From the NCBI RefSeq assembly GCF_044324785.1, contig NZ_CP172127.1: 64,000 nt of DNA; one strand, written 5' to 3'. Each line of letters opens with the position of its first letter. Position 1 is the first letter of the stretch. The DNA comes from Escherichia coli (GTDB taxonomy: Bacteria; Pseudomonadota; Gammaproteobacteria; Enterobacterales; Enterobacteriaceae). A program made the position numbers and the translations under genes. The notes beneath the pieces were generated by a model. The model searched no databases and was not told where the DNA came from. It saw only the letters and a list, made by a program, of their open reading frames with translations. Positions 1 to 53,328 of this stretch are shown here, piece by piece.

Positions 1-536
1 TGCGGGTTAGTGCACTTCGCGCCGTTCATAACGATAAAGTCTGGTTTGAAACCTGCCAGCTCTTCATCGCTCGGGCGAATAAACATGTTTTTGACAAAAT
101 GCGCCTGCCAGGCCACTTCGGTGATGAAACGGACGGAAAGACGAGTATCCGGGTTCGCACCACAGAAGGCGTCGACAACGAACAGACGTTTGCCGGAAAG
201 CTGTTTGGTCACCAGGCCTTTCAGATGCTGCCAGGTTTGCGGAGAGAGAGGTTTGTTATCGTTCTTACCTTTGCCTTTGTCTGCCCACCAGAAAGTATCG
301 CGAGTGGTATCGTCACGGACGATATACTTATCTTTTGGTGAACGACCGGTGAAGATCCCGGTATCGACGGCAACGGCACCCAGATTAGTTAACACCCCGC
401 GCTCATAACCTGTCAGGCTCGGATCGAGCTCTTCCTGATACAGCAGGTCGTAGCTTGGGTTGTAAACGATATCATGTACGTCACTGATACCATAAGCCTC
501 GAGTTCTTGCGGGGTCAAACCATTGTTAACGCGCAT
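1..536 (-). CDS. pckA: phosphoenolpyruvate carboxykinase (ATP), N-terminal part; gene runs off the window start
   Basis: Reverse-strand translation from ATG at 534-536 reads [20 protein letters not shown]...; SD-like ctaaggag just upstream (on - strand); not in the ORF track because there is no stop inside the window. Confidence 0.85.
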
Positions 537-914
537 TTCACTGCTCCTTAGCCAATATGTATTGCCTGAATAGTAAAGTCTTTTTGGGGGTGTTAACCGC
601 GACAAGGCTCATAGATTTACGTATCTGGAGAAATTCATATTTGACAAAAAACTCCGTGATTCCTGTCACGAAACGGTTGCTATTATCGCAGAAATAGCAT
701 TTTAGGTGTGGAAAATGTTCTTAAAAGGTTAAATCTTGGTTTATATGGCGGGAATATTGTGAGTGGAATCGCATTCCTGAATGAAATTGATGCAAATTCA
801 ATCGGTAAAGTATCGATTCACCACGCTAACTTTTTTTGATTATTTTCTGAAAAAAGCAAAATACTACGGCCCGGATGCGATAATTAACCCACTTTTTGAT
901 TCTGGATAACTAAC

Positions 915-2639
915 ATGGATAACGTTGAACTTTCACCCGCAACACGCTGGGGGATGATTGCTACCGGATTACTTCAGGGGCTGGTTTGCTACCTGCTGAT
1001 CGCCTGGCTTGCCGGAAAAAATCACAGTTGGATTGTTTATGGCGTGCCTGCGACCGTCGCGTTTTCATCCGTTTTACTCTTCTCCGTGATCTCTTTTAAA
1101 CAGAAGCGCCTTTGGGGATGGCTGGCGCTGGTGTTTATTGCCACGCTGGGGATGAGCGGCTGGCTGAAGTGGCAAATTGATGGCATGAACCCCTGGAGAG
1201 CAGAAAAGGCGCTTTGGGATTTTGGCTGCTATCTGCTGCTGATGGCAATGTTGTTGCTACCGTGGATACAACAAAGCCTTCGCATCCGCAATGACAGTAG
1301 CCGCTATCGCTATTTTTACCAGTCAGTATGGCATAACGTACTTATATTACTGGTGATTTTTCTCGCCAATGGCCTGACATGGCTGGTACTTTTACTGTGG
1401 GGCGAGTTGTTTAAACTTGTTGGCATCACGTTTTTCAAAACGCTCTTTTTTGCAACCGACTGGTTTATTTATCTCACGTTAGGTCTGGTTACCGCACTGG
1501 CGGTGCTCCTCGCGCGTACACAGTCACGTTTAATCGACTCTATTCAAAAGTTGTTCACGTTAATCGCCACGGGGTTGCTGCCGTTAGTATCATTGCTAAC
1601 CCTGATGTTTATCATCACCCTGCCGTTTACGGGCCTGAGCGCGATTTCTCGCCACATTTCCGCCGCCGGGTTGCTGTTGACGCTGGCCTTTTTGCAATTG
1701 ATCTTAATGGCTATTGTCCGCGATCCGCAAAAATCGTCATTTCCCTGGACGGGGCCGTTGCGTTGCCTGATTAAAACCGCTCTGCTGGTTGCTCCGCTGT
1801 ATGTGTTCGCCGCCGCCTGGGCGTTATGGCTGCGGGTCGCTCAGTACGGCTGGACTGTCGATCGCTTGCAGGGCGCACTGGCGGTGCTGGTGTTACTGGT
1901 ATGGTCGCTGGGGTATTTTGTCAGTATCGTCTGGCGTAAAGGGCAAAACCCCCTTGTTCTTCAGGGCAAAGTGAACCTTGCGGTTTCGTTATTGGTGTTG
2001 GTAATACTGGTGCTTCTTAATTCTCCGGTGCTGGACAGTATGCGCATTAGCGTGAACAGTCATATGGCGCGTTATCAGAGTGGCAAAAACACGCCAGACC
2101 AGGTAACTATCTACATGCTCGAACAGAGCGGTCGCTATGGACGTGCGGCGCTTGAGTCGCTGAAAAGCGATGCTGAGTATATGAAAGACCCGAAACGTGC
2201 GCGGGATCTGCTGATGGCTTTTGATGGAGTACAACGTCTTCAGCAGCAGATATCGGAAAAAGCATTAGCAGATAATGTATTTATTGCCTCAGGTTCTGGA
2301 AAACCGGATACGATATTCTGGTCGGCAGTGATGAAAAATCGCTATAACGCAATGATATGCATTGAAAAAGATGCCTGCGTGCTGGTAGAGCAAGATCTGA
2401 ATAGTGATGGCAGGGCAGAGCGGATCCTCTTTGCCTTTGATGATGAAAGATACATTGTCTATGGCTTTGATCCTGACAAGAAAGAATGGCAAGAGCTTAC
2501 GATGAGTTTACTTCCGCGTGATATAACGAAAGAAAAATTACTCACAGCTGCGAAGGATGGAAAACTGGGAACGAAGCCTAAAGCGTGGCGCGATCTTGTA
2601 GTGGATGGTGAAAGGCTGGATGTGAATCTGAATGAGTGA
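915..2639 (+). CDS. yhgE: uncharacterised inner-membrane protein (574 aa), many hydrophobic segments
   Basis: ORF track 574 aa; position between pckA and hslO as in E. coli; hydrophobic N-terminal two thirds. Confidence 0.85.
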
Positions 2640-2701
2640 CAAAGCGCATCAGGTGTATTAGTCGTAAAATCCGGCAGAGCCCTCTCTGCCGGACATACTC
2701 A

Positions 2702-3580
2702 TTAATGAACTTGCGGATCTGCCGGAGACGCGTTGTTGCGGATTTCAGCAATATCCATCGCATTGAACAGATAGTGGTTACCGCAGTAATCGCAATGCAT
2801 GTCAATTTCGCCATCTTCCGCCAGGATACTATCGACTTCTTCATCCGGCAGCGTTTTTAGCGCGTCGGCGCAACGTTCACGCGAACAGGTGCATTTGAAC
2901 TCCACATCCTGCGGATCGTAAACCGTCACCTCTTCTTCGTGATACAAACGCCACAACACTTCGTTTGCCGGTAAGGTCAACAATTCTTCGGTTTTGATGG
3001 TTTCGGTTAGCGTTGCCAGGTGGTCAAAGTCGTCCTGCTGGGCATTTTGCGCAGGCATTACCTGCAACAACATTCCGCCTGCAGCCGGTTTGCCGTCTAC
3101 GTCGCCGGTGCGAATAAACAGGCGCGTCGGCAGCTGTTCAGAACGCATAAAGTAATCTTCCAGGCAGGCCGCCAGGGTATCACCTTCCAGACCCACCACG
3201 CCCTGATAGCGTTCGCCTTCGCTCGGGGTGATGGTGATCACCACGTAACCATTGCCGACCAGCGTTTTCAGGTCGGCATTTTCCGGAATTTCGCCCTGCA
3301 CGCGCGCCACACCGCGCATCTGCTGGTTGTTGTTACCGTTAATAACCGCCAGATTCATCGGACCGTCGCCTTGCAGCTGTACGGTGATATCACCATCAAA
3401 CTTCAGCGTAGCGGTTAACAGGCTGGTCGCAACCAGCAGTTCTGCCAGCACGTTTTTAACGGGCTGCGGATAATCGTGATTCTCAAGGATCTGTTGCAGG
3501 GTTTCCGAAACGGTTACCAGTTCGCCGCGAACGGCAAAGTTTTCAAACAGATAGCGATGTAATTGGTCATGTTGCGGCAT
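2702..3580 (-). CDS. hslO: Hsp33 redox-regulated chaperone
   Basis: ORF track (294 aa; start trimmed to MPQHDQ); C-terminal CxC...CxxC zinc centre (KCTCSRERC...HCDYCG). Confidence 0.93.
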
Positions 3581-3604
3581 AATCATCTCTCTTGCAGGTG
3601 ACAG

Positions 3605-4006
3605 TTATTCACTGTCGCCGTGTTTAAATCGTAACAGGTCGCGGCGCTCTTTTTTGTCCGGGCGTCGGTCCGGGTGCGGCATGGTTAAGGCATTAAGTTT
3701 ACGTGCCAGCGCCATTTTTTCGCGTTTCTCTACACTTTCCGCAGTCTCTTCATACAGCAAGGCTGCCTCGCTGGCGGGGCGACGCTGTTCAGTAATCGCC
3801 TTTACAATCACCGTGCGTTCGTCATTTCCCTGGCGCAGAGTGAGCGTGGCATTCAGCTCGACGATTTTGCTCGGCTTGCTGCGCTGCCCGTTGTAATGCA
3901 CCTTACCGCCTTCAATCATTTCACGGGCCAGCGCGCGGGTTTTATAAAAACGGGCAGCCCATAGCCATTTATCCAGTCGAACCTCAACAGCAGGTTTTTC
4001 TTTCAT
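3605..4006 (-). CDS. hslR: Hsp15 ribosome-associated heat-shock protein (S4-like RNA-binding)
   Basis: ORF track 133 aa, basic C-terminal tail; immediately downstream of hslO on the same strand. Confidence 0.9.
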   Translation of the reverse strand: MKEKPAVEVRLDKWLWAARFYKTRALAREMIEGGKVHYNGQRSKPSKIVELNATLTLRQGNDERTVIVKAITEQRRPASEAALLYEETAESVEKREKMALARKLNALTMPHPDRRPDKKERRDLLRFKHGDSE

Positions 4007-4016
4007 GGCGTCTCCT

Positions 4017-4685
4017 TCACATTAGCGAGGGGATCAGGCGGCGGTAGTCATTCAGTGACGGATGGCGTTGATACTGTTTCTCGGCAATCCCGGAGTCAGG
4101 ATTAGTCACGCCGAGGCAGTAACGAATACCAAATTGCGCGGCAGCATCGAGAATCGCTTCGCTGTCATCAATAAACAGCGTTCTTTCAGCTTTCAGACCC
4201 GTAGCTTCGGCCACCGCATGCCATAACCGCTGATCCTCTTTCGGATAACCAAATGTGTGGGTGGAAAGTAATAAATCAAGGTGTGCGTCCAGACCGGTAT
4301 GCTCAAGTTTTACCGCCAGGTTGTGCGGATGAGCATTGGTGAGCAAAATTCGCTGCTTACCGCTGGCTTTCAGTGCCTCAAGAAACGGAATGGTATCTTC
4401 ACGCAGTACGGCGCGCGGTCCCATCTCGGTGGTCATCGCACAGATATCCAGACCCAGTTGCTCACTCCAGTAATCAAGACAGTACCAGTTTAGCGTATGC
4501 TGTACGTCGTGATATTGCTGGCGCATATATTCCATCGCTTCCTGTGGCGTAACCCCGTTTTTCGCGCCCCATGTTTCAGGCACCAGCTTTTGCCAGAAAT
4601 AGTTATCGAAGGCGAGGTCGAGCAACGTGCCGTCCATATCCAGCAGAACGGTATCTACGTCCTGCCAGGCAATGTTGATATGCAT
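4017..4685 (-). CDS. yrfG: HAD-superfamily phosphatase (GMP/IMP nucleotidase)
   Basis: ORF track 237 aa trimmed to internal ATG (MHINIAWQDVDTVLLDMDGTLLD, HAD motif I DxDGT). Confidence 0.88.
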   Translation of the reverse strand: MHINIAWQDVDTVLLDMDGTLLDLAFDNYFWQKLVPETWGAKNGVTPQEAMEYMRQQYHDVQHTLNWYCLDYWSEQLGLDICAMTTEMGPRAVLREDTIPFLEALKASGKQRILLTNAHPHNLAVKLEHTGLDAHLDLLLSTHTFGYPKEDQRLWHAVAEATGLKAERTLFIDDSEAILDAAAQFGIRYCLGVTNPDSGIAEKQYQRHPSLNDYRRLIPSLM

Positions 4686-4749
4686 GAGGGAAATCTCCAG
4701 AGTGAAGCAATTTGCGCGACAGGGTAGCATAACCTGCCGCGCAAACGTG

Positions 4750-6885
4750 TTATTCGATAAGGCTTTCTGAAGGGGTGATCAGTTGTGGGTTCAGGCAGCT
4801 TTCATAATAGGCCTGAATCTTCATCATGCGAGTACGATGACGCTGGTAACGCCGCCAGGCCTGTACGCCATTATAAATGGCGCTACCCAGCATCGTCAGT
4901 AGCAGCAGCGTGGTGCTGAGATAGCGCCACAGGCCGGAACGATCCGGGATCGGATGAAGGCCAATATGCTGCGTACCATTGGCGTCAGTGAAGATTTTTG
5001 TGACGATACCCTCGGCGTTAAACGGCGTATGCATCAGCATTTGTGCCAGTTTCTGGAAAGCGTTCCACTGTTCTTGCGGCGGGTAGTCGTAAAGTGATGC
5101 CGAAGGCCAGGGCTGATCAACAAAATCGCTGCCTTCGTCGCTGACAATCAGGAATCCACCGGGGGCGGGACTGTTTAGTGATTGTGCCGCTCGCGCCGTT
5201 TCATGCGTGATAAACGGCGCGGTGGAGGTTGCCACCAGGTTATCCAGTGATTCCGCACTCACCGGGCGTAATAACACATTCACGCCATCGAGTTTCCCAG
5301 CGTTGGCGCGTTTTACCAGCGCGTCCCAGTCTTTACTGTTGCCGAGATTGACCAGCGCATTTTTCAGTCGCACACAGTCATCTTTGGCAGAACATAGATC
5401 CGCTGTCTTCAGTACTATGTCGCCAAAATCATCAAGCAATACCATGCCGGATTTTTGAATTGCTGAACGTAATGAGGCGCTGACGCGAGATTCATCTTCC
5501 GGTTTAGGGTGCAGCTGGCGATTAACTGCTTCGGTCAATGCCGTCGCTTTGTTGACCAGTTCAGATTCTGGTAATGGCAATGAGCGGGCGTCATTCCAGA
5601 TGATCTGCGAGCAGTCAAACGGTAAAAAAGGTGAGTTGGTTTTCGCGCTCCAGGTACCGGAAGTGCGAATATTACACATTCCCGTACCGCTAATACGCAA
5701 TGTATCGCCAACCCGCACGCCAGCGTCAGCCAGTTGTTTCACGCTGGTGGCTTCAATGGTCTGCGCGCCTTTCATCCACGAGAGGGTGAATTTCAGCGGC
5801 ATATCCAGCGGGATCCAGAATAACAGCATAAACAGCACCAGTAGCGAGCCCGCAGCGATAATCGTACTGCGCAGCCAGTGCTGTAACGGAAAGTTTTTTA
5901 CTTCATCATGGAGCGAAAGATATCGCCCCTGACGCACTACGTGGCGGTCGAGATAGATATCGATATCGGTTTGTTGACCGAGATCCTGAGCAATGTATGG
6001 CTGCCAGTGTGCGGGGTAGACCAGGTCGATAATACCGAGTGAAATATTGTTGATCTGTTCCTGATCGTTTTCGCCAAACAATCCCCAACGACGGGGTGTA
6101 CCGCGCAGACAATGAATTTCCCGCAGGGAGGATTTTGCCGGGGGCGCGAATAGCCCCCACAGACCTGCGCCCAGCAGCAGTAACGCGCCGCCTGCCAGCC
6201 ACGGAACAAATACATCCGGGGTAATCAGGCAGAAAAAGAACATCAGGAATGAGGCGACAATCAGCAACGCTTCACGCAGCCCGCGCGGACGACTTAGCGC
6301 ATACTCTTCGTGCGTTTCTTTGCGAATATTGAGTAGCTCGATTTGCTCACTCTCTTCCCCGCGAATCGACGCCTGTGTTGACGGAACAGGTTGCAAGGCA
6401 TAGCCGCGAGTTTCCTGCATGTACTCCTGCAGCGTATGACCGTTGAGTGAAATAACCAGCGGCAGCGAATCGGTATGAATCAGTTCAACGGTATTCTCAT
6501 CGTTGATGTACTGTTCCCAGAAGGGGGGCAGGTGGACTTCTACCGAATCGAGGTAGTAACGCCATTTATTCGGATCGTCGGTAGAGATGCCGTAACGCGT
6601 GATAGCGTGTGTCAGCATCATGACGTTGTTGCTTTCGGCATTCAGCGCCAGAGAGATCGGTGCCGCGCTGGCTCCCGTTGGGCCAGGCACCTGTAATACC
6701 TGCGTCAGGCTCTCAAGATAATTTTCAACGGCGCTACGTTCTTCAGGTGTGAGTTTACGCGTTTGCGCATCCGCGAAGGCGTTGGTCCAGGGCAGCTGAC
6801 GCCGTCTGGATCGCACTTTTATCAGCCATCCCGCAAGTAGTGAGCAGGCCAGCAAAGCAGCTAAAAAAATCACAATGGTGCTCAT
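4750..6885 (-). CDS. igaA: IgaA/YrfF inner-membrane regulator of the Rcs phosphorelay
   Basis: ORF track 711 aa with N-terminal and internal transmembrane segments; conserved position. Confidence 0.9.
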   Translation of the reverse strand: MSTIVIFLAALLACSLLAGWLIKVRSRRRQLPWTNAFADAQTRKLTPEERSAVENYLESLTQVLQVPGPTGASAAPISLALNAESNNVMMLTHAITRYGISTDDPNKWRYYLDSVEVHLPPFWEQYINDENTVELIHTDSLPLVISLNGHTLQEYMQETRGYALQPVPSTQASIRGEESEQIELLNIRKETHEEYALSRPRGLREALLIVASFLMFFFCLITPDVFVPWLAGGALLLLGAGLWGLFAPPAKSSLREIHCLRGTPRRWGLFGENDQEQINNISLGIIDLVYPAHWQPYIAQDLGQQTDIDIYLDRHVVRQGRYLSLHDEVKNFPLQHWLRSTIIAAGSLLVLFMLLFWIPLDMPLKFTLSWMKGAQTIEATSVKQLADAGVRVGDTLRISGTGMCNIRTSGTWSAKTNSPFLPFDCSQIIWNDARSLPLPESELVNKATALTEAVNRQLHPKPEDESRVSASLRSAIQKSGMVLLDDFGDIVLKTADLCSAKDDCVRLKNALVNLGNSKDWDALVKRANAGKLDGVNVLLRPVSAESLDNLVATSTAPFITHETARAAQSLNSPAPGGFLIVSDEGSDFVDQPWPSASLYDYPPQEQWNAFQKLAQMLMHTPFNAEGIVTKIFTDANGTQHIGLHPIPDRSGLWRYLSTTLLLLTMLGSAIYNGVQAWRRYQRHRTRMMKIQAYYESCLNPQLITPSESLIE

Positions 6886-7204
6886 GCTTTCCCCATCTTA
6901 CTTAGTCTGTCAGGCGTGGTCAGTCGCACCGGACACAAAACATGATTCTGCGGTTGGCTATCGGCAAGCGTGGAGTTTAACTTGAGCATCATTAAGCACA
7001 TCACAGTAACCGCTGATCATAGCAAACCCTCTGAAGGCGGAATATCAGCAAATTCCTGGAGTTATTTCAACCTATTGACTTTTAATTTGATTTGAGGACG
7101 ATTATTTATTAAGTTACATAAATGTAAATAACATGCAATTCACATTGCCGAAAGCGTGTCCTATATCGCACAATAACCGCTGATTTCACAGCATAGATCC
7201 CACG

Positions 7205-7765
7205 ATGAGCAAATCATTACAAAAACCCACCATTCTGAATGTTGAAACTGTAGCCCGTTCCCGACTGTTTACCGTCGAAAGCGTGGATCTGGAGTTCAGC
7301 AATGGCGTGCGGCGTGTTTATGAACGAATGCGTCCAACCAACCGGGAAGCAGTGATGATTGTGCCGATTGTGGACGATCACCTGATCCTGATCCGCGAAT
7401 ACGCAGTGGGAACTGAATCCTACGAATTAGGTTTTTCGAAAGGATTAATTGATCCGGGTGAAAGCGTCTACGAAGCCGCTAACCGCGAGCTAAAAGAAGA
7501 GGTTGGATTTGGTGCGAACGATCTGACTTTTTTGAAGAAGCTCAGCATGGCACCGTCTTATTTTTCCAGCAAAATGAATATCGTGGTAGCGCAAGATCTC
7601 TACCCGGAATCGCTGGAAGGCGATGAGCCAGAGCCGCTACCACAGGTGCGCTGGCCGCTGGCGCATATGATGGATTTGCTGGAAGACCCTGATTTCAATG
7701 AAGCGCGCAATGTCAGTGCGCTTTTCCTCGTGCGCGAGTGGTTGAAAGGGCAGGGGCGAGTGTAA
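7205..7765 (+). CDS. nudE: Nudix hydrolase (ADP-sugar/ADP-compound pyrophosphatase)
   Basis: ORF track 186 aa; Nudix box GESVYEAANRELKEEVG. Confidence 0.92.
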   Translation: MSKSLQKPTILNVETVARSRLFTVESVDLEFSNGVRRVYERMRPTNREAVMIVPIVDDHLILIREYAVGTESYELGFSKGLIDPGESVYEAANRELKEEVGFGANDLTFLKKLSMAPSYFSSKMNIVVAQDLYPESLEGDEPEPLPQVRWPLAHMMDLLEDPDFNEARNVSALFLVREWLKGQGRV

Positions 7766-40875: not shown

Positions 40876-41457
<582 letters not shown>

Positions 41458-41466
41458 TGATTTCTC

Positions 41467-41488
41467 GCGCGGGCAATCTTGCCCGCGC
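41467..41488 (+). terminator. GC-rich hairpin downstream of ppiA (probable terminator, weak U-tract)
   Basis: gcgcgggc aatctt gcccgcgc, 10 nt after the ppiA stop. Confidence 0.55.
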
Positions 41489-41561
41489 TTCTGCTCTCCC
41501 GGCGTAACCCGGATTTGCCGCTTATACTTGTGGCAAATGGACACGTTCAGGGAGGCATCAA

Positions 41562-41729
41562 GTGAAGAAACTCACCGATAAGCAAAAGTCCCGTCTCTGG
41601 GAACTTCAGCGTAATCGTAATTTCCAGGCCAGTCGCCGTCTTGAAGGCGTCGAGATGCCTTTAGTCACTCTTACTGCCGCAGAGGCTTTAGCGCGCCTTG
41701 AAGAGCTGAGGAGGCACTATGAGCGATAA
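41562..41729 (+). CDS. yhfG: small protein YhfG (55 aa), candidate Fic antitoxin/inhibitor
   Basis: GTG start preceded by ggagg SD; translation [55 protein letters not shown]; overlaps the fic start by 11 nt. Confidence 0.8.
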
Positions 41730-42321
41730 ATTCGGCGAAGGGCGCGATCCGTATCTTTATCCTGGCCTTGATATCATGCGTAACCGGCTGAACATCCGCC
41801 AGCAGCAGCGGCTGGAACAGGCCGCTTACGAAATGACGGCGCTGCGTGCTGCGACCATTGAGCTTGGTCCGCTGGTGCGCGGTTTACCGCATTTGCGCAC
41901 TATCCATCGCCAGCTGTATCAGGATATTTTCGACTGGGCAGGGCAACTGCGTGAAGTTGATATTTATCAGGGCGATACGCCGTTCTGCCACTTTGCCTAT
42001 ATCGAAAAAGAGGGCAATGCCCTGATGCAGGATCTGGAGGAAGAAGGTTATCTGGTTGGCCTGGATAAAGCGAAGTTCGTCGAGCGGCTGGCACATTACT
42101 ATTGTGAAATCAACGTGCTGCATCCCTTCCGTGTGGGAAGCGGACTGGCACAGCGGATCTTCTTCGAGCAGCTGGCGATTCATGCGGGCTACCAACTGAG
42201 CTGGCAGGGTATCGAAAAAGAGGCCTGGAATCAGGCAAATCAGAGTGGGGCAATGGGGGATCTCACCGCGCTGCAGATGATATTTAGCAAAGTGGTAAGC
42301 GAAGCCGGGGAATCTGAGTAA
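41719..42321 (+). CDS. fic: Fic-domain protein
   Basis: ORF track 200 aa; Fic-like motif [12 protein letters not shown] at residues 135-146. Confidence 0.9.
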
Positions 42322-42352
42322 AATAGCGCGGTTCTTTCGTACCGGAGCCGCC

Positions 42353-42916
42353 ATGATCCTGCTTATAGATAACTACGATTCTTTTACCTGGAACCTCTAC
42401 CAGTACTTTTGTGAACTGGGGGCGGATGTGCTGGTTAAGCGCAACGATGCGTTGACGCTGGCGGATATCGACGCCCTTAAACCACAAAAAATTGTCATCT
42501 CACCCGGACCCTGTACGCCAGATGAAGCCGGGATCTCCCTTGACGTTATTCGCCACTATGCCGGGTGCTTGCCGATTCTTGGCGTTTGCCTCGGTCATCA
42601 GGCAATGGCGCAGGCATTTGGCGGTAAAGTTGTGCGCGCCGCAAAGGTCATGCACGGCAAAACCTCGCCGATTACACATAACGGTGAGGGCGTATTTCGG
42701 GGGCTGGCAAATCCACTTACCGTGACACGCTACCATTCGCTGGTGGTGGAACCTGACTCATTACCAGCGTGCTTTGAAGTGACGGCCTGGAGCGAAACCC
42801 GCGAGATTATGGGGATTCGCCATCGCCAGTGGGATCTGGAAGGTGTGCAGTTCCACCCGGAAAGTATTCTCAGCGAACAAGGACATCAACTGCTGGCTAA
42901 TTTCCTGCATCGCTGA
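42353..42916 (+). CDS. pabA: aminodeoxychorismate synthase, glutamine amidotransferase subunit
   Basis: ORF track 187 aa; class I GATase motifs (ILGVCLGHQ). Confidence 0.95.
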
Positions 42917-42986
42917 TTTCTGATTGCTATTAAGTGATTTTTTATGCATATTTTGTGATTGTAATTTCATGTTGGTTTATGCGTAA

Positions 42987-44225
<1,239 letters not shown>

Positions 44226-44245
44226 GACGCATCAGGCAAAAGATG

Positions 44246-44276
44246 TCGGATGCGGCGTGAACGCTGTATCCGATGG
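44246..44276. repeat. degenerate REP-like palindrome between convergent argD and yhfK
   Basis: gtcggatgcggcgtgaacgctgtatccgat. Confidence 0.5.
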
Positions 44277-44287
44277 TTTAGCCTGCA

Positions 44288-46378
44288 TTACGCCTTCGAA
44301 TCCCGCAACTTGCGACTCAGCCAAATCCCGTGATGCGGTCGCTGACGCCATGCCATCGACGAAATGGTGTGCATGGTGTTCAGATGACCAATAACCCGCT
44401 GTAAATGCTGCTCCAGCGTACCTGCCGCGCCTTCGTGCGGCTGCATCTCCGGCGCATCCATGATATTGGCATCGCCGGAACTACCCGGTTCGTCATACTC
44501 CAGTCGCTGCTGACAACGCTGAATGGCGATTTCACAAGACTGTAAATACTCTTGTGCCAGTTCAGGTGGCAATGCCCGGTGTTCCCGCGCCAGCGTGGTC
44601 ATGGCATTAATATGCTCAACAATAAACTGGCTGTGCGTTACCCACAGTTTCATATCTGCCAGATAATGGCTGTTAAACGCCGGTTCCTGCATCGCCTGAT
44701 TCAATGAGTTATACAGAGTGTTATGCGCCTGATTTACCCGCATTCGCTGCCAGGCCAGTGGCGTAGGTTGCGGGTCCTCGCTCAGAATCAAGCGAATTGC
44801 TTCCTGATAGGCTTCTAAAGCGTCATGGGCGTTCTTACGCAATAACCCGCTCTGCCACTGCGGCCACAGCCAGACGGTACCACCGAAAGCAATTAAACAA
44901 CCAATAATGGTATCAATAAGACGTGGAAGGATGTACTGCTCACCGTTCAACCACAACAGTTGCAGGGTATACACTGCGGTAATGGTAAAACCGACCGTCG
45001 CCCAGCCGTAGTTTTTGCGCAATATCAGGTAGCTGGCGAGGGTGGTAATCAGCATCAACGTCAGGGTGTAACCTTCGGGAATTTTAAAGTGCAGGGCAAC
45101 GCCCGCAATGATTAACCCGACCACGGTTCCCACGGAGCGATTCACAATCCTCAGACGGGTTGCGCCATAGCCATTTTGCGTCACCAGCAATACCGTCATC
45201 AGGATCCAGTACGACTTCGGCAGATGCAGCGCGGTGCCCATCAGGCTGGCAACGCTTAACATCACACTGAGTCGTCCGGCATTGCGTAGCGCCGGAGACT
45301 TTAGTGACAGATAACTTTTCAGTGCCGGAAGTAACGGCATTCGCCGCTGTTTATCGGCCAGTAAGTCACGGGCATAGAGCGGTTTTTGGGTGCGCAGCAC
45401 GCGGGCGATGCGGCTGAAATGCCAATAGCAGAATTGCCCAACCGGATTATCCGGATGCTGGCGGGCGATTTTTTCCAGTGCGCCAATTTGCTTTTCCATC
45501 GTAAAACGCGTCGGCAGGCGATGGTAAAGAATGTCATCAGCCAGCACGCGCAGGCGAGCGGCGACGGTTTGCGCATTCCAGCGGATAACTTCTTCTGCAT
45601 GGCTACGCTCGACCAGCTTTTGCACCTCTTCCGGCTGATGCAAACTGACCGAAATATGTTCCTGCAAATCCAGCGCCTCCTGGAAAATACGCAGCATCCG
45701 CTTGTAATCGTTATTATTTTGCGCGGAAAGCATATGCATTTGCTGATAGCACTGGGTAATTAGATCGACCGCTTTTTGCTGGCGCACCAGCAGCGGCGGC
45801 AGCGCTTTTTCAGGGTCGGTGTGCTGGGTAAGCAGGCTGTATTTGGCTTCACAATAATCTGCCAGTTCACGGTACAGCAGACTTAGTGACTCGCGCAGCG
45901 GTTGTTCGCGCCAGATCCAGAACCAAAACCAGTTAAACAATCCGTACCAGAGAGTGCCCAACGCATAGATGAGCAACGGTTCCCAGACCGGCATGTATCC
46001 CGCCAGACTGAGGGTAAAAATGGCGGCGAGCAGCGATGCGGGAAGCAATTTTGCGTGCAATGGCCCCAGCTCAGCAGTGACGCCAAGTACCAGCGTTAGT
46101 CCAGTCAGCAAAAAGGGCAAGGGAACATCTTTTGCCAGTAACAGCTGTGTCAGCAAGCTACAGGTGGCAAACAGCGACGCACCAATGATTAAGCGTTTGA
46201 AAAAACGTTTATGAGGCGTATCAAGGCCCGCAATATTGCAACAGGCAGGAACGAGGGAGAAGAGCAGACCGAATCGTAATTCGCCAAGCATTAACCCAAT
46301 GGCCACGGGCAAACATAGCACCAGCGTTTGTCGCAGTGCATAGTTAATATCGGGGTGATAAATCAGTCTGCGCCACAT
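44288..46378 (-). CDS. yhfK: large uncharacterised inner-membrane protein
   Basis: ORF track 700 aa (TTG-initiated), trimmed to the ATG giving MWRRLIYHPD. Confidence 0.85.
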   Translation of the reverse strand: MWRRLIYHPDINYALRQTLVLCLPVAIGLMLGELRFGLLFSLVPACCNIAGLDTPHKRFFKRLIIGASLFATCSLLTQLLLAKDVPLPFLLTGLTLVLGVTAELGPLHAKLLPASLLAAIFTLSLAGYMPVWEPLLIYALGTLWYGLFNWFWFWIWREQPLRESLSLLYRELADYCEAKYSLLTQHTDPEKALPPLLVRQQKAVDLITQCYQQMHMLSAQNNNDYKRMLRIFQEALDLQEHISVSLHQPEEVQKLVERSHAEEVIRWNAQTVAARLRVLADDILYHRLPTRFTMEKQIGALEKIARQHPDNPVGQFCYWHFSRIARVLRTQKPLYARDLLADKQRRMPLLPALKSYLSLKSPALRNAGRLSVMLSVASLMGTALHLPKSYWILMTVLLVTQNGYGATRLRIVNRSVGTVVGLIIAGVALHFKIPEGYTLTLMLITTLASYLILRKNYGWATVGFTITAVYTLQLLWLNGEQYILPRLIDTIIGCLIAFGGTVWLWPQWQSGLLRKNAHDALEAYQEAIRLILSEDPQPTPLAWQRMRVNQAHNTLYNSLNQAMQEPAFNSHYLADMKLWVTHSQFIVEHINAMTTLAREHRALPPELAQEYLQSCEIAIQRCQQRLEYDEPGSSGDANIMDAPEMQPHEGAAGTLEQHLQRVIGHLNTMHTISSMAWRQRPHHGIWLSRKLRDSKA

Positions 46379-46380
46379 CG

Positions 46381-46416
46381 GGGGAAACAAAATGGCGCGC
46401 TACCAGGTAACGCGCC
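46381..46416 (-). terminator. crp rho-independent terminator
   Basis: On - strand: GGCGCG-ttacctggta-CGCGCC followed by attttgtttcccc, 13 nt after the crp stop. Confidence 0.85.
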
Positions 46417-46428
46417 ACTCCGACGGGA

Positions 46429-47061
46429 TTAACGAGTGCCGTAAACGACGATGGTTTTACCGTGTGCGGAGATCAGGTTCTGATCTTCCAGCATCTTCAG
46501 AATGCGTCCCACGGTTTCACGAGAACAGCCAACAATCTGACCGATTTCCTGACGGGTAATTTTGATTTGCATACCGTCCGGGTGAGTCATAGCATCCGGT
46601 TGTTTTGCCAGGTTCAGCAGAGTCTGTGCAATGCGGCCCGTCACGTCGAGGAACGCCAGGTTGCCCACTTTCTCTGAAGTGACTTGCAGGCGACGCGCCA
46701 TCTGTGCAGACAGACGCATCAGAATGTCCGGGTTTACCTGAATCAATTGGCGAAATTTTTTGTACGAAATTTCAGCCACTTCACAGGCGGTTTTCGCACG
46801 TACCCATGCGCTACGTTCCTGGCCCTCTTCAAACAGGCCCAGTTCGCCAATAAAATCACCCTGATTCAGATAGGAGAGGATCATTTCTTTACCCTCTTCG
46901 TCTTTGATCAGCACTGCCACAGAGCCTTTAACGATGTAGTACAGCGTTTCCGCTTTTTCACCCTGGTGAATAAGCGTGCTCTTGGATGGGTACTTATGAA
47001 TGTGGCAATGAGACAAGAACCATTCGAGAGTCGGGTCTGTTTGCGGTTTGCCAAGCACCAT
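46429..47061 (-). CDS. crp: cAMP receptor protein
   Basis: ORF track 210 aa, [50 protein letters not shown]... Confidence 0.98.
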
Positions 47062-47362
47062 GCGCGGTTATCCTCTGTTATAAGCTTTCTCCAGAGCCAG
47101 ATAACGCCGCTGTCTCTGGATTGCCGAAATATGCTTCCCGCTACCTGGGAAGGGGCTATCAACTGTACTGCACGGTAATGTGACGTCCTTTGCATACATG
47201 CAGTACATCAATGTATTACTGTAGCATCCTGACTGTTTTAGCATAGCTTTCGCTTTGTGTCTCCTGGTGTCTCGCTTCAGCATGACCCAGGTCGCCTTCC
47301 GTTGCGCGATTTGGTTAGTACGCGTACTCTGTCAGGAAAATTGACGCAGTGGAGTAGCAAAA

Positions 47363-47767
47363 ATGCAAGCGCGAGTGAAGTGGGTCGAAGGGTTAACTTT
47401 TCTGGGCGAATCCGCCTCTGGTCACCAGATTTTAATGGACGGCAACTCAGGCGATAAAGCACCAAGTCCGATGGAAATGGTGTTGATGGCGGCGGGTGGT
47501 TGCAGTGCCATTGATGTGGTTTCTATTCTGCAAAAAGGGCGTCAGGATGTGGTCGATTGTGAAGTAAAATTGACCTCTGAACGCCGCGAAGAGGCACCAC
47601 GCCTGTTTACGCACATTAATCTGCATTTTATCGTCACCGGTCGCGACCTGAAAGACGCAGCGGTTGCGCGTGCGGTAGATCTCTCTGCCGAGAAATATTG
47701 TTCAGTGGCGTTGATGCTGGAAAAAGCGGTGAATATTACTCACTCGTATGAAGTGGTTGCCGCGTGA
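47363..47767 (+). CDS. yhfA: OsmC-family protein
   Basis: ORF track 134 aa; divergent from crp. Confidence 0.88.
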   Translation: MQARVKWVEGLTFLGESASGHQILMDGNSGDKAPSPMEMVLMAAGGCSAIDVVSILQKGRQDVVDCEVKLTSERREEAPRLFTHINLHFIVTGRDLKDAAVARAVDLSAEKYCSVALMLEKAVNITHSYEVVAA

Positions 47768-47821
47768 TTTAACTATCCCATTGTGAAGCCGGATAGTATT
47801 TTATCCGGCGTAATAGCAAAG

Positions 47822-48691
47822 TTACTCGATTTTCTTTCCTTCCATCAATCGTTGCACCAGCGGCAGCATAATTAATTCCATTGCCAGACCCATTTTGCCG
47901 CCCGGTACCACTAACGTATTGATGTGGGAAATGAATGAGCCTTGCAACATCGCCAGCAGCCAGGGAAAATCGATCCCTTCCAGATTACGAAAATGGATCA
48001 CCACAAAGCTTTCATCCAGCGACGGGATACCTTTTGCCGCGAACGGGTTTGAAGTGTCGACGGTGGGAACGCGCTGGAAGTTAAGATGGGTGCGGGAAAA
48101 CTGCGGTGTGATGTAGTTGATATAGTCTTCCATTGAACGCACTACCGAGTCCATCACTGCTTCTCGTGAGTGCCCGCGCTCGCTGGTGTCGCGGATCAGT
48201 TTTTGAATCCACTCAAGGTTAACGATAGGCACCACGCCGACCAGTAAGTCCACATGCTGCGCAACGTTATGCTGTGGCGTGACTACGCCGCCGTGTAAAC
48301 CTTCATAAAACAGTACATCAGTGGGTTCCGGTAAAGGTTGCCATGGGGTGAATGTCCCAGGTACCTGATTCCACGGTACGGCTTCGTCGTAGGTATGCAG
48401 ATATTTGCGAGATTTCCCTTTGCCGCTCTGACCATATTCAATGAAGGTTTGTTCCAGCAGGCCAAAGTCGTTCGCTTCGGGGCCGAAGTAGCTGATATGC
48501 CGCCCGGCGTCGCGTGCTTTGCGGATCGCCATGTCCATTTCCGGGCGTGTGTAACGGTGAAAACTGTCGCCTTCCACCTCGGCTGCATGCAGATTTAACT
48601 GCGCGAATATTTTACGAAACGCGAGGCTGGTGGTGGTGGTCCCCGCGCCGCTGGATCCTGTTACCGCAATGACCGGATGTTTGGCAGACAT
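47822..48691 (-). CDS. prkB: phosphoribulokinase-like P-loop kinase
   Basis: ORF track 289 aa; P-loop VIAVTGSSGAGTTTT. Confidence 0.9.
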   Translation of the reverse strand: MSAKHPVIAVTGSSGAGTTTTSLAFRKIFAQLNLHAAEVEGDSFHRYTRPEMDMAIRKARDAGRHISYFGPEANDFGLLEQTFIEYGQSGKGKSRKYLHTYDEAVPWNQVPGTFTPWQPLPEPTDVLFYEGLHGGVVTPQHNVAQHVDLLVGVVPIVNLEWIQKLIRDTSERGHSREAVMDSVVRSMEDYINYITPQFSRTHLNFQRVPTVDTSNPFAAKGIPSLDESFVVIHFRNLEGIDFPWLLAMLQGSFISHINTLVVPGGKMGLAMELIMLPLVQRLMEGKKIE

Positions 48692-48744
48692 AGTAACTCC
48701 ATGACTTAGCTATCATTATTATCTCGTCCGCCGACGGTTGCAGG

Positions 48745-48963
48745 TTATTCGCGAAACTGACTGCGCGGCATGATATTGACCGTTTCGTGCAGCTCCGACC
48801 ATACCAGCACCGCTTCTCCGCACTGTAGCTGGCGTTTGACGTCGGCGACTTTCTGTTCAAGTGTACGCTCATGTTCACCATAATCGGTGCCTTCACGTAA
48901 CACAAAGCTTTCAATTAAATTTTCCAGCGTTTCGGGGGAGAGGTCTTGCCACGGAATCAACAT
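48745..48963 (-). CDS. yheU: small conserved protein (UPF0270-like)
   Basis: ORF track 72 aa; overlaps the yheT stop. Confidence 0.85.
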
Positions 48964-49979
48964 GATTTCGCCTCCAGATACGTTGTTAACCAGTCAGGAA
49001 TGCGTGACTCCAGCCACATTTGCGGATGAAGTAACGTACCGCCAATAAAGCCAACATGACCGCCATGTTCAGTCAGTTGATACTCCACCTGCGGGGGGAG
49101 ACTTTCCGGTTTCGGGATCACCTGATGATCCATAAACGGATCGTCTTTGGCGTGAATAATCAGCGTCGGTTTGGCGATCCGGTTCAGCATCGGCATGGCG
49201 CTACACTGACGATAATAGTCGATAGCGTCAGCGTAGCCGTGAATTCTGGCGGTGATGAGATCGTCAAATTCACGGATGCGACGTACCGATTTTAACTGCG
49301 CGAGATTAATCGGCAGTGTTCCGGGGTAGGCTGCCAGCTTGCGCGCGGCATTGGCTTTTAACAGGTTCAGCAAGTAACGCTGATAAACGCGGGAAAAGCC
49401 CTTTTCCATATGGTAACTACAGGCCTCCAGCATAAATGGCGCGGAGACAATTACCGCTGCATCAATCGGGAGGTTATTACCTTCTTTTGCCAGCAAACAG
49501 GCCAGCATATTACCGCCGAGCGAATAGCCGACGGCAGCCGTTGGCGCATGACCAAATTCGCGTTGCAGCCAGCGTAAAAACCAGCTGGCGTCTTCGGTTT
49601 CGCCCGAATGGTAAATGCGGTGCATACGGTTTGGTTCACCGCTGCATCCGCGAAAATGCATCACCACGCCCAGCCAGCCACGCTTTTGCGCCGCCTCAAC
49701 CAGACCGTGGGCGTAAGGGCTATTGAGACTGCCTTCGAGCCCGTGAAACACGACTAAACGCGGTTTATGCCGCGCCTGTGCAGGATCTTCACTCCACGCG
49801 AGATCGACAAAATCGCCGTCGGGCAACTCCAGTCGCTGCCAGTGCGGGGTGAATTTCACCTTGCGACGAAACAGACGCGGCAGCATGGTTTGTAGATGAC
49901 AATTGCTAAAGCCGCGCATGGGGGTGAATTCAGCACTGCTGCTGAATTCATTGGCATCGGTCGTCGTTATCTGCGCCAT
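48957..49979 (-). CDS. yheT: alpha/beta-fold hydrolase
   Basis: ORF track 340 aa; nucleophile-elbow GYSLGG; start codon overlaps the yheS stop by one nucleotide. Confidence 0.9.
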
Positions 49980-50074
49980 CAGTTGCTTTGGCCTTCCAGC
50001 AGCATCTGCTCAAGCTGCTCCTGGGCTTCCAGCCATGCCATTTCGCACTCTTCCAGGCCGGATTTGGCGCTGGC
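49979..50074 (-). pseudogene. yheS: displaced 3' remnant of yheS (last 30 codons plus stop), separated from the gene body by the IS
   Basis: Reverse-strand translation SAKSGLEECEMAWLEAQEQLEQMLLEGQSN* continues the YheS reading frame interrupted at 51507. Confidence 0.85.
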
Positions 50075-50982
<908 letters not shown>

Positions 50983-51438
50983 TCCAGGAGATGCTCCTGC
51001 ATGGCTTTCAGATATGCATTTTCTGCGCGAAGATAACGCAGCTCATTCTTCATCTCTTCCGGCGTCATGTTTGCCTCGTTTTCATGGGTATCATCAGAAC
51101 GGGTCATGCTTTTCTCCTTCCTGCGCCTGATAAAGGCCTCATTACCAGATTTGCGGTAGCCTTTTATCCAGTTTTTAACCGTGTTGTGGCTGGGAATGTT
51201 AAACCGGGCAGCTACCCGGGGTAGAGACTCAGAATGCCCGAGAGCATAAAGAACCACGCAAAGTTTATCTTCAGGAGAATAGCTACGCTTGTGTCTGCAA
51301 TCCAGTGCCCGAGGACCGTGAAGAAGAAAAAGATTAATCCAGTGTGAGAGGCTGGTGTGAGAAAGTTGAAAGAGTTTTGCCGTAGAAATGATGCCTGCAT
51401 GACCAGCCAGGTAATGATTTACAGCGGCAAGTTTTACT

Positions 51439-53328
51439 TCAAATGAATGTTTCATAAACTGCACCTTCAGATGTCAGATTATGTCCAACATTTGGGGTGC
51501 AGTTCATGGCTTGCTGTTGCAGGCATGCGGTCAGTTCTGCTTTACGGCTTTGATCGTACAGTTCGCTGTCGCCGAGTTTCTCTTCCGCCTGCGCCAGCTG
51601 TGCGTTCAGCTTCTCCATCTCTTTTTCCAGACGGGCAATCTCTTTACGCAGTGGCTGGGTTTGCGCACGCAGCTCCGCTTCCCGACGCTTCTGATCTTTA
51701 CGTGCCTGGGCGCTGTTCGCGTTCTCTTTTGGCGAGTCGTCGGCCTGGTTTTCCTGCTTTTGTACGTCGCTCAACCACTGTTGATAATCTTCCAGATCGC
51801 CGTCGAACGGTTCGACTTTACGATCGTGAACCAGGTAGAGATCGTCAGTGGTGGAACGCAGCAAATGACGGTCGTGCGAGACGACAACCAGCGCGCCTTC
51901 GAACTCGATTAATGCTTCGGTGAGAGCCTGACGCATGTCGAGGTCAAGGTGGTTGGTCGGTTCGTCGAGCAGCAGCAGATTCGGACGCTGCCAGACGATT
52001 AATGCCAGCACCAGGCGGGCTTTTTCCCCACCGGAAAAGCGGCGCGTTTCTTCCGTCACTTTATCGCCCTGGAAACCAAAGCCGCCGAGGTAGTCACGCA
52101 GTTTTTGTTCCAGTTCCTGCGGCGCTAAACGTGCCAGATGTTGAATAGGCGATTCGTCGGCGCGCAGGTATTCCAGTTGATGCTGGGCGAAGTAGCCGAG
52201 CTTGATCCCTTTCGCCAGATCAATTTCACCGCTGACTGGCGCAAGTTCGCCGGCTAACAGTTTGATTAATGTCGATTTACCCGCGCCGTTGCGGCCTAAC
52301 AGACCAATGCGCGAGCCGGGGACCAGATTCAGTTTAATCGAGTCGAGAATAATGCGATCACCATAGCCTGCGCTGACTTTTTCCATCTTTAATAACGGAT
52401 TAGGCAGGCTTTCCGGCGCGCGGAAGCTAAAACGAAACGGGTTGTCAACGTGCGCGGGGGCAATCAGCTCCATACGCTCGAGCATCTTAATGCGGCTCTG
52501 GGCCTGCTTCGCTTTGGTGGCTTTGGCACGGAAACGGTCGATATAACTTTGCAGATGCGCCACGCGTTCCTGCTGGCTTTCGTACATCGCTTGTTGCTGC
52601 GCCAGACGGGTGGCGCGCTGCACTTCAAACGAACTGTAGTTGCCGGTGTACTCGAACATGCTTTGTTGTTCGATATGAATAATTTTATCAACGATCGGAT
52701 CGAGGAAGTCGCGGTCGTGAGAGATCAGGATCAGCGTGCCCTGATAGCTCTTCAGCCATTTTTCCAGCCAGATAACGGCATCGAGATCGAGGTGGTTAGT
52801 CGGTTCGTCGAGCAGCAGCAAGTCTGAACGGCAAATCAGCGCCTGGGCAAGGTTAAGACGCATACGCCAGCCCCCGGAAAAATCACTTACCGGGCGCTCC
52901 AGTTGTTCATTGCTGAAACCGAGGCCGTGCAGCAGGCTGGCGGCGCGGGAGCGAATACTCCATGCGTCGATAGCATCCAGCTTGCCATGAATGGTCGCAA
53001 TGGCGTGCCCGTCGTTACGTTCGTTGGCGTCGTGTAGCTGCGCTTCCAGTTGACGATATTCACGGTCGCCGTCAATGACATATTCCAGCGCCGCTTGCGG
53101 TAACGCCGGCGTTTCCTGATTCACCCACGCCAGTTGCCAGCTTCCCGGAAAGGTGTAGCTGCCGCCGTCGGCGCTGATTTCATTTTTCAGCAATGCCAGC
53201 AGGGTAGATTTACCACAGCCGTTTTTACCCACCAGGCCGACTTTCTGCCCGGGGTTGATGGTGGCGGTGGCATTATCCAGCAGGACGCGCACGCCGCGAC
53301 GAATTTGTAACGAGGAGAAAACAATCAT
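51439..53328 (-). CDS. yheS: ABC-F ATPase YheS with the 3' end interrupted by the IS: 607 native residues fused to 22 IS-encoded residues
   Basis: ORF track 629 aa; two ABC cassettes (Walker A GKNGCGKST and GRNGAGKST, signature LSGG); the reading frame crosses the IS boundary at 51506/51507 and stops inside the IS. Confidence 0.9.
   Translation of the reverse strand: MIVFSSLQIRRGVRVLLDNATATINPGQKVGLVGKNGCGKSTLLALLKNEISADGGSYTFPGSWQLAWVNQETPALPQAALEYVIDGDREYRQLEAQLHDANERNDGHAIATIHGKLDAIDAWSIRSRAASLLHGLGFSNEQLERPVSDFSGGWRMRLNLAQALICRSDLLLLDEPTNHLDLDAVIWLEKWLKSYQGTLILISHDRDFLDPIVDKIIHIEQQSMFEYTGNYSSFEVQRATRLAQQQAMYESQQERVAHLQSYIDRFRAKATKAKQAQSRIKMLERMELIAPAHVDNPFRFSFRAPESLPNPLLKMEKVSAGYGDRIILDSIKLNLVPGSRIGLLGRNGAGKSTLIKLLAGELAPVSGEIDLAKGIKLGYFAQHQLEYLRADESPIQHLARLAPQELEQKLRDYLGGFGFQGDKVTEETRRFSGGEKARLVLALIVWQRPNLLLLDEPTNHLDLDMRQALTEALIEFEGALVVVSHDRHLLRSTTDDLYLVHDRKVEPFDGDLEDYQQWLSDVQKQENQADDSPKENANSAQARKDQKRREAELRAQTQPLRKEIARLEKEMEKLNAQLAQAEEKLGDSELYDQSRKAELTACLQQQAMNCTPNVGHNLTSEGAVYETFI

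Follow-up and report, generated by a model that had tools for sequence, protein, structure and literature searches.

What do the membrane proteins YhgE and YhfK do in Escherichia coli? The question is raised by the stretch of DNA analyzed here (the window), 64,000 nucleotides (nt) of contig NZ_CP172127.1 from the RefSeq assembly GCF_044324785.1, which carries yhgE at positions 915–2639 on the plus strand and yhfK at positions 44288–46390 on the minus strand. Both are known E. coli y-genes, which the original prediction described as under-characterized, and our full-text literature searches bore this out, finding no functional characterization of either protein. Both genes are known already, and the analysis establishes no new function. 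The account that explains the data best as a whole, and to which we give an even chance of being right, holds that both genes encode real and intact inner-membrane proteins, with a role for YhgE in handling an envelope molecule and a role for YhfK in the export of an organic anion. For YhgE in particular, we propose with low confidence, from a predicted structure and the placement of its conserved residues, that the protein handles an envelope molecule, both anionic and amphipathic, on the periplasmic side of the inner membrane.

Comparison with strain K-12 MG1655 identified the window as an E. coli-type chromosome segment. Its beginning (1–7354) is colinear with the K-12 region pck-yhgE-hslO-hslR-yrfG-igaA, gapless and 97.6% identical, and a second region (41182–52617) is colinear with K-12 argD-yhfK-crp-yhfA-prkB-yheU-yheT-yheS except for one insertion. 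The yhgE coding sequence was found, as predicted, to be an uninterrupted open reading frame (ORF) that starts with ATG and contains 574 codons plus a stop. It is colinear with K-12 b3402 (1725 nt), its exact counterpart, the product of which is named 'putative transport protein YhgE'; the RefSeq label for the same gene is 'yhgE: DUF4153 domain-containing protein'. Of 5426 complete E. coli genomes, 5425 carry the gene, and only rarely is it truncated. That the ORF is a genuine gene and not a product of chance is indicated by the ratio of nonsynonymous to synonymous substitution rates (dN/dS) of 0.28, by the match to the Pfam family DUF4153 (E 5.6e-30), and by the existence of 2035 clusters of homologs. 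Here and below, dN and dS values are pairwise averages over eleven E. coli alleles spread over the identity range.

Assignment of YhgE to DUF4153 (PF13687) is supported by a score of 105.2 bits, the gathering cut-off being 27 bits, and by a match that spans residues 52–415 of the protein and positions 3–372 of the 373 in the profile. DUF4153 is the sole Pfam family matched, and no NCBIfam model matches YhgE. The homologs, collected at E up to 1e-3 in an exhaustive HMMER search, are mostly 560–640 amino acids (aa) long and align end to end; among the 150 best, 123 fall between 540 and 660 aa and align over their full length. The architecture of the family is constant across Gamma-, Beta-, and Alphaproteobacteria, and the homologs of YhgE, near or distant, are all named at source either 'hypothetical' or 'DUF4153 domain-containing protein'. 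YhgE and the DUF4153 homologs agree in length, in helix pattern, and in having the C-terminal domain, but the PF13687 model stops short of the C-terminal 160 residues of YhgE, though these are conserved within the YhgE subfamily. DUF4153 has been taken out of the Cache clan as unrelated (PMC4822843).

Family conservation, topology counts, and the input for structure prediction were all based on an alignment of 124 YhgE homologs. The resulting AlphaFold2 model is very confident (predicted local distance difference test, pLDDT, 94.4; predicted template modeling score, pTM, 0.88). Together with hydropathy, it divides the protein into a membrane domain of 11 predicted transmembrane (TM) helices (codons 1–373, window positions 915–2033) and a C-terminal soluble domain of approximately 200 aa (codons 374–574, positions 2034–2636), which is predicted to be periplasmic. 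The modeled TM helices occupy residues 8–32, 38–57, 64–88, 93–123, 130–168, 182–202, 204–239, 250–268, 280–311, 315–340, and 346–368, with an extra short helix at 173–180. The C-terminal domain, which reached a pLDDT of 93.5 when modeled alone, consists of a helical subdomain followed by a four-stranded beta subdomain (sheet at residues 488–532). An odd number of TM helices with a cytoplasmic N-terminus would place this domain outside. We infer an N-in/C-out topology with a disulfide-bonded cysteine pair in the periplasmic domain, because loops assigned to the cytoplasm contain on average 8.5 lysines plus arginines per protein vs. 4.1 for loops assigned to the periplasm, and because the number of cysteines in the C-terminal domain is even in 101 of the 124 homologs. 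The description of both proteins as polytopic was thus upheld, for YhgE and YhfK by hydropathy and for YhgE also by the model.

The most conserved loop of the family, R307-x2-Q-Y-G-W-T-x2-R317 (positions 1833–1865, plus strand), lies at the predicted periplasmic end of TM9/TM10, with R307 conserved in 100%, G312 in 99%, R317 in 98%, and Q310 in 90% of the homologs. Other highly conserved residues include F232 (100%), F166 (99%), L165 and W139 (98% each), Q383 (95%), and R386 (94%). Conserved positions of TM5 are Y131, W139, N141, W156, L161, L165, and F166, which are followed by F174 and F178 in the short helix and by F184; in TM7 and at its end they are L221-L222-P223, F232, and L236-P-F-x-G240. 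Further conserved positions comprise L306, Y334, N354, P371, D374, Q383, R386, G406, and G409, of which D374, Q383, and R386 belong to the first helix of the C-terminal domain. Within the sheet region, the family alignment revealed the pair C482-x5-C488 followed by an acidic loop, D494-L-N-S-D498-G-R-A-E502 (positions 2358–2420, plus strand). Each of the two cysteines is conserved in 91% of the homologs, D494 in 84%, D498 in 83%, and E502 in 88% (as D or E); W525 is conserved as well. These two cysteines and three acidic residues are invariant in the 11 E. coli alleles. Although 85 of the 574 sites vary among these alleles, the family-conserved residues are invariant in them with the exception of R307P in a single strain. 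That strain is DEF10, in which the substitution affects the family-invariant arginine; this allele may be a natural loss-of-function variant.

With the inferred topology, most of the conserved positions, including the two near-invariant arginines and a belt of aromatic residues, are predicted to lie at the periplasmic membrane interface beneath the periplasmic domain. Such placement suggests a site for an anionic amphipathic molecule at the outer leaflet rather than a solute pathway in the middle of the membrane. The molecule that YhgE would bind or move at the outer leaflet of the inner membrane might be a lipid bearing phosphate or an intermediate linked to polyprenyl phosphate, with the aromatic-plus-arginine cluster of the protein facing the periplasm. 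The periplasmic domain, which may bind metal, would serve as a cap or as a module for partner binding, and its exposed surface would be under weak constraint or diversifying pressure. A similar layout, with at least 11 TM helices, conserved arginines and aromatic residues at the periplasmic interface, and a periplasmic soluble domain, is found in the GT-C glycosyltransferases ArnT and PglB and in the O-antigen ligase WaaL; the likeness is one of layout only.

The same placement of residues bears on the possibility that YhgE is a conventional secondary transporter, moving a small hydrophilic solute along a central alternating-access pathway. The K-12 product name, the eleven TM helices together with a length typical of permeases, and the two conserved membrane-embedded asparagines (N141 and N354) speak for it, but conserved residues at the periplasmic interface point away from a mid-membrane pathway, and we regard this explanation as unlikely. 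A Foldseek comparison of the YhgE model with 350,542 PDB chains gave a best E of 0.2 and template modeling scores of ~0.1, with no significant match to structures of MFS, LeuT/APC, MOP/MurJ, RND, or ABC transporters, nor to those of GT-C glycosyltransferases or O-antigen ligases. Sequence searches with YhgE and with its C-terminal domain against PDB chains and Pfam yielded nothing usable beyond DUF4153, the C-terminal domain having no match. A profile built from the 124 sequences likewise found nothing usable among PDB sequences, its best match being a fluoride exporter fusion (E 0.072, 78 residues). When segments of the alignment were compared by hhalign to look for a repeat between the N- and C-terminal helix bundles of YhgE, none was detected, the highest probability being 11.6% (residues 64–127 vs. 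283–346) and the rest below 4%. The predicted fold of YhgE is without a counterpart among solved structures. PADLOC-DB contains no family matching YhgE or YhfK at E up to 1, and a scan of PHROGs gave nothing for either. The original statement that the translations have no recognizable catalytic motifs is borne out by these searches, as neither protein matches an enzyme family in Pfam, NCBIfam, PADLOC, PHROGs, or PDB sequences.

Genomic context was surveyed by three contig look-ups and at 80 genome loci, with clustering of the flanking ORFs by BLASTP of all against all. When 100,044 species genomes were scanned with the pattern [WGI][LI]R[VI]xQYGW[TS], derived from the 20 closest YhgE sequences, 234 relatives were retrieved, belonging to Enterobacteriaceae, Rahnella, Pragia, Erwinia-like genera, Xanthomonadales, and some Beta- and Alphaproteobacteria. 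Synteny of pck-yhgE-hslO-hslR-yrfG-igaA is limited to Enterobacteriaceae. In Xanthomonadales the recurring neighbors are a Tag-like glycosylase, an esterase, and a PilT-like ATPase, which are clade-specific and functionally unrelated; several other neighbor clusters proved spurious, consisting of antisense ORFs from crude ORF calling in high-GC DNA. Guilt by association was rejected for YhgE, its neighbors being conserved only within clades; the absence of any neighbor conserved outside Enterobacteriaceae means that genomic context lends no support to a particular function. Upstream of the DUF4153 gene of Pragia fontium, at a distance of ~1.6 kb, are a PAAR-Pyocin_S toxin gene and, after it, a tandem array of six CdiI_5-type immunity genes; this arrangement is an isolated case and probably a coincidence. 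In the window, the divergent pck-yhgE intergenic region contains a CRP-binding sequence, TGTGAGTGGAATCGCA (positions 758–773, plus strand). The distance from it is 142 nt to the yhgE ATG on one side and ~220 nt to the divergent pck start on the other, the sequence being upstream of both. It matches exactly the CRP target found by chromatin immunoprecipitation in the yhgE/pck intergenic region of enterotoxigenic E. coli H10407 (PMC4287617).

Most literature matches for 'yhgE' concern an unrelated Gram-positive YhgE/Pip protein or a Lactococcus pilin; the Gram-positive YhgE/Pip phage infection protein belongs to an unrelated family and has only the gene name in common with E. coli YhgE. For the E. 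coli gene itself, a mutation abolishing the start codon was recorded in a population rich in persisters after evolution under ampicillin (PMC7394356), a transposon insertion left the cells viable with a long lag phase (PMC5996734), and down-regulation on leaving exponential growth was observed in O157:H7 (PMC2241611). Since the transposon mutant was viable and the start-codon loss arose in an evolved population, YhgE appears to be dispensable in the laboratory.

The original prediction called both proteins conserved. For YhgE this holds for presence, synteny, and architecture, but not for sequence, as the gene is among the fastest evolving in its neighborhood. Between the window and K-12, yhgE differs by 100 nt and 41 aa (30 of them within residues 420–536), as compared with 19 nt and no aa for hslO, 1 nt and no aa for hslR, 3 nt and no aa for yrfG, and 37 nt and 2 aa for igaA. 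Between genera, identity to Citrobacter is 56% for YhgE vs. 84–94% for Pck, HslO, HslR, YrfG, and IgaA, and identity to Enterobacter is 43% vs. 77–88% for the same proteins; YhgE is 53% identical to its Kluyvera ortholog and 32% to that of Atlantibacter. Among the E. coli alleles, the overall dN/dS of yhgE is composed of 0.17 for the membrane domain and 0.35 for the C-terminal domain, rising to 0.70 in codons 511–540, the maximum of all regional averages, none of which exceeds 1. The neighbors show 0.011 (hslO), 0.05 (pck), and 0.10 (hslR). By these measures, yhgE evolves several times faster than its neighbors.

Variation is concentrated in the periplasmic part of the protein, where 27 and 20% of the sites in the two subdomains are variable, vs. 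10% of those in the membrane domain. Codons 420–540 (positions 2172–2534, plus strand) form a hypervariable mosaic segment with a mean dN of 0.064, a dN/dS of 0.37, and dS up to 0.5; dS values in the C-terminal domain reach 0.38–0.5, far higher than those of the neighbors. In the amino-acid alignment of the 11 alleles, blocks are reassorted among strains, a sign of recombination among alleles that are old or were imported. The allele in the window is a rare one, its best match among the 5426 complete genomes (97.7% identity) being that of strain N3. The N3 gene has a window-like C-terminal segment; 1 nt is deleted from it at nt 35, and its annotation gives it as frameshifted. Residues 436–481 of the window protein (positions ~2220–2360) correspond to a segment that is absent from the ten intact alleles compared and was seen only in strain N3. 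Shortened variants of 444–542 aa occur among E. coli and Shigella clusters. The convergent yhgE-hslO spacer (2640–2701) is 62 nt long in the window, in K-12, and in several strains, and 133–134 nt long in others, namely those with a diverged yhgE 3' end (the 'LEINLSK' tail), so that one class of alleles seems to be associated with an indel, perhaps a repeat element. On the sequences compared, relaxed constraint on the exposed domain and diversifying selection would either of them fit the yhgE data.

Several points weigh against a role of YhgE with an anionic amphipathic molecule. The mechanism is read from the placement of conserved residues in a model, and the literature searched contains no ligand, partner, or phenotype that ties YhgE to a lipid or envelope pathway. 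No partner gene common to different clades was found among the flanking ORFs of the 80 loci, and the acidic loop matches no metal-binding family in Pfam. Moreover, Escherichia YhgE departs from the family consensus at positions that are 78–95% conserved elsewhere (N266 to A, W346 to P, Q383 to H, and D398 to T), which hints at lineage-specific drift or a change of function; combined with the dN/dS of 0.28, these losses are compatible with a weakening function.

In another explanation, YhgE has neither transport nor enzymatic activity of its own, being a structural or partner-binding protein, or else is under relaxed constraint and drifting toward loss in Escherichia and its relatives. The elevated dN/dS (0.28 vs. 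0.01–0.10 for the neighbors), the low identity between genera (43% for Enterobacter and 56% for Citrobacter vs. 77–94% for the syntenic genes), the lost consensus residues, the frameshifted N3 allele, the shortened E. coli and Shigella variants, R307P in DEF10, and the loss of the start codon in the evolved laboratory population all speak for it. Yet the gene is retained nearly always at full length in all complete E. coli genomes but one, its dN/dS is well below 1 and lower still in the membrane domain, and all but one of the family-conserved residues are invariant in 11 divergent alleles. The more than 2000 family clusters of constant architecture and the co-evolution signal supporting the very confident model also argue against it, and we consider it improbable, to the same degree as the solute transporter. 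The reading of yhgE as a decaying pseudogene was rejected, as yhgE is almost always intact, its dN/dS is below 1, and the family-invariant residues are kept.

Diversifying selection of the mosaic periplasmic domain could be imposed by an antagonist for which it serves as receptor or entry factor in the inner membrane. Candidates would be toxins of the contact-dependent or colicin type and the step at which a phage delivers its genome; such selection would be compatible with any primary function of YhgE. The excess of variable sites in the periplasmic subdomains, the reassorted allele blocks with dS of 0.38–0.5 (indicating imported or ancient alleles), and the rarity of the window allele are in its favor, as is the listing of YhgE by Touchon et al. 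among E. coli hot spots of phylogenetic incongruence, which those authors ascribed to diversifying selection (PMC2617782). On the other hand, no region exceeds a dN/dS of 1 in the pairwise averages, the literature searches found no paper tying yhgE to toxin or phage resistance, PADLOC and PHROGs gave no match, the toxin/immunity cluster of Pragia is an isolated example, and relaxed constraint plus recombination accounts for the same data. An antagonist is accordingly somewhat less probable in our estimation than either of the two preceding explanations. Least probable of all is the full combination of an unsolved DUF4153 fold, an arginine/aromatic site acting on a lipid-linked or anionic molecule, and antagonist-driven diversity of a disulfide-bonded periplasmic domain.

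Returning to the favored account, its second part concerns YhfK, which is strongly conserved in sequence, as originally described: the window protein differs from that of K-12 by 2 aa in 700 residues (37 nt) and is 82% identical to the orthologs of Enterobacter and Kosakonia. The intact frame predicted for yhfK was found as well. The predicted length of 700 aa and extent of 44288–46378 are, however, mutually off by 12 nt (four codons), an immaterial slip, since the minus-strand frame has 700 codons when read from TTG at 46390 and 696 when read from ATG at 46378. The K-12 counterpart, b3358 (2103 nt), has the identical extent and is annotated from the TTG equivalent to that at 46390. The ATG is the fifth codon of this frame, and the 696-aa product has the length of the main E. 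coli protein cluster; nearly all YhfK orthologs begin at the ATG four codons past the TTG, giving 690–696 aa. Because the main cluster and nearly all orthologs use the downstream ATG, the shorter start is probably the real one.

By its domain content, YhfK is clearly assigned as an ordinary member of a known putative efflux family, YccS/YhfK, of the FUSC/ArAE type. It matches the NCBIfam model TIGR01667 (YccS/YhfK family putative transporter) over residues 16–679 with 926.4 bits, exceeding the cut-off of 467.8. Its score against TIGR01666, the YccS equivalog, is 165.3 bits and falls below the cut-off of 470.75, so YhfK is a paralog rather than an ortholog of YccS. Residues 67–334 (positions 45389–46192, minus strand) form an FUSC-like domain (PF12805, 240.8 bits, E 2.1e-71) comprising the N-terminal membrane bundle and a cytoplasmic helical region, and residues 381–502 (positions 44885–45250, minus strand) form an FUSC_2 domain (PF13515, 78.1 bits), the second membrane bundle, which is weakly ALMT-like. 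In agreement with these matches, hydropathy revealed two membrane bundles, the first with peaks at residues 18–133, each followed by a long hydrophilic region. With these two domains and a duplicated layout of a bundle followed by a cytoplasmic helical region, YhfK resembles the FUSC/ArAE efflux proteins AaeB and YccS of E. coli and the fusaric acid resistance protein FusC. It differs from AaeB in that yhfK has no adjacent gene for a membrane-fusion partner such as aaeA, its neighbors being crp and argD.

Owing to this firm assignment at the family level, a general mechanism can be proposed for YhfK. In the manner of AaeB and of the ALMT channels, to which it is distantly related, it would let an organic anion (a carboxylate) leave the cytoplasm by export or conduction. 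The likeness to plant ALMT/QUAC channels lies in the second bundle, residues 392–534 of which align weakly, below threshold, with the ALMT pore domain. The sole match among PDB sequences, also weak, is the soybean channel GmALMT12/QUAC1 (7w6k, E 0.015). The alignment suggests a common organic-anion-conducting unit. ALMTs are homodimers of single units, unlike YhfK, which would have two such units per chain.

This proposal, too, has evidence to contend with. The score of YhfK against the FUSC model PF04632 (25.9 bits) fails the gathering cut-off of 30.9, so that by sequence criteria YhfK belongs to the wider FUSC group through PF12805 and PF13515 and stands outside the PF04632 model proper; its score against the ALMT model PF11744 (16.8 bits, E 0.0035) is likewise below the cut-off of 20.6. 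Comparison of the two halves detected no homology, with homologs that are too similar and an alignment that is shallow (effective number of sequences 1.2), and no paper in the literature searched establishes a substrate. An Ajinomoto patent reportedly assigns the export of L-glutamate to yhfK, both that of Pantoea ananatis and that of E. coli; if correct, this would be prior characterization of the kind that the original prediction allowed for. The searched papers make no mention of it. The YhfK protein was detected, and termed 'uncharacterized', in a 2022 proteome study of uropathogenic E. coli (PMC9149909), and yhfK was a fitness hit under moderate iron restriction in a transposon-sequencing study of Salmonella (PMC9308263).

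The one interruption of colinearity in the yhfK region is an insertion of 1432 bp relative to K-12, located near the 3' end of yheS (50075–51506) and resembling an insertion sequence. It is bounded by 25-nt imperfect terminal inverted repeats, which are 84% complementary. Within it, two ORFs of 176 and 240 aa follow each other on the minus strand and are similar to the orfA/orfB transposase pair found in IS3-family elements. The yheS reading frame now terminates within this insertion.

The submitted finding says again what is commonly known, namely that two E. coli y-genes have no assigned function. The importance of YhfK would lie mainly in its being a further unassigned exporter of organic anions, which metabolic engineering might make use of. 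Follow-up is better directed at YhgE, a near-universal core gene with a confidently predicted fold unmatched in the PDB, a sharply defined conserved site, and a fast-evolving mosaic periplasmic domain; these features supply both point mutants and allele swaps, and they make YhgE a reasonable target for structure determination and for toxin and phage screens.

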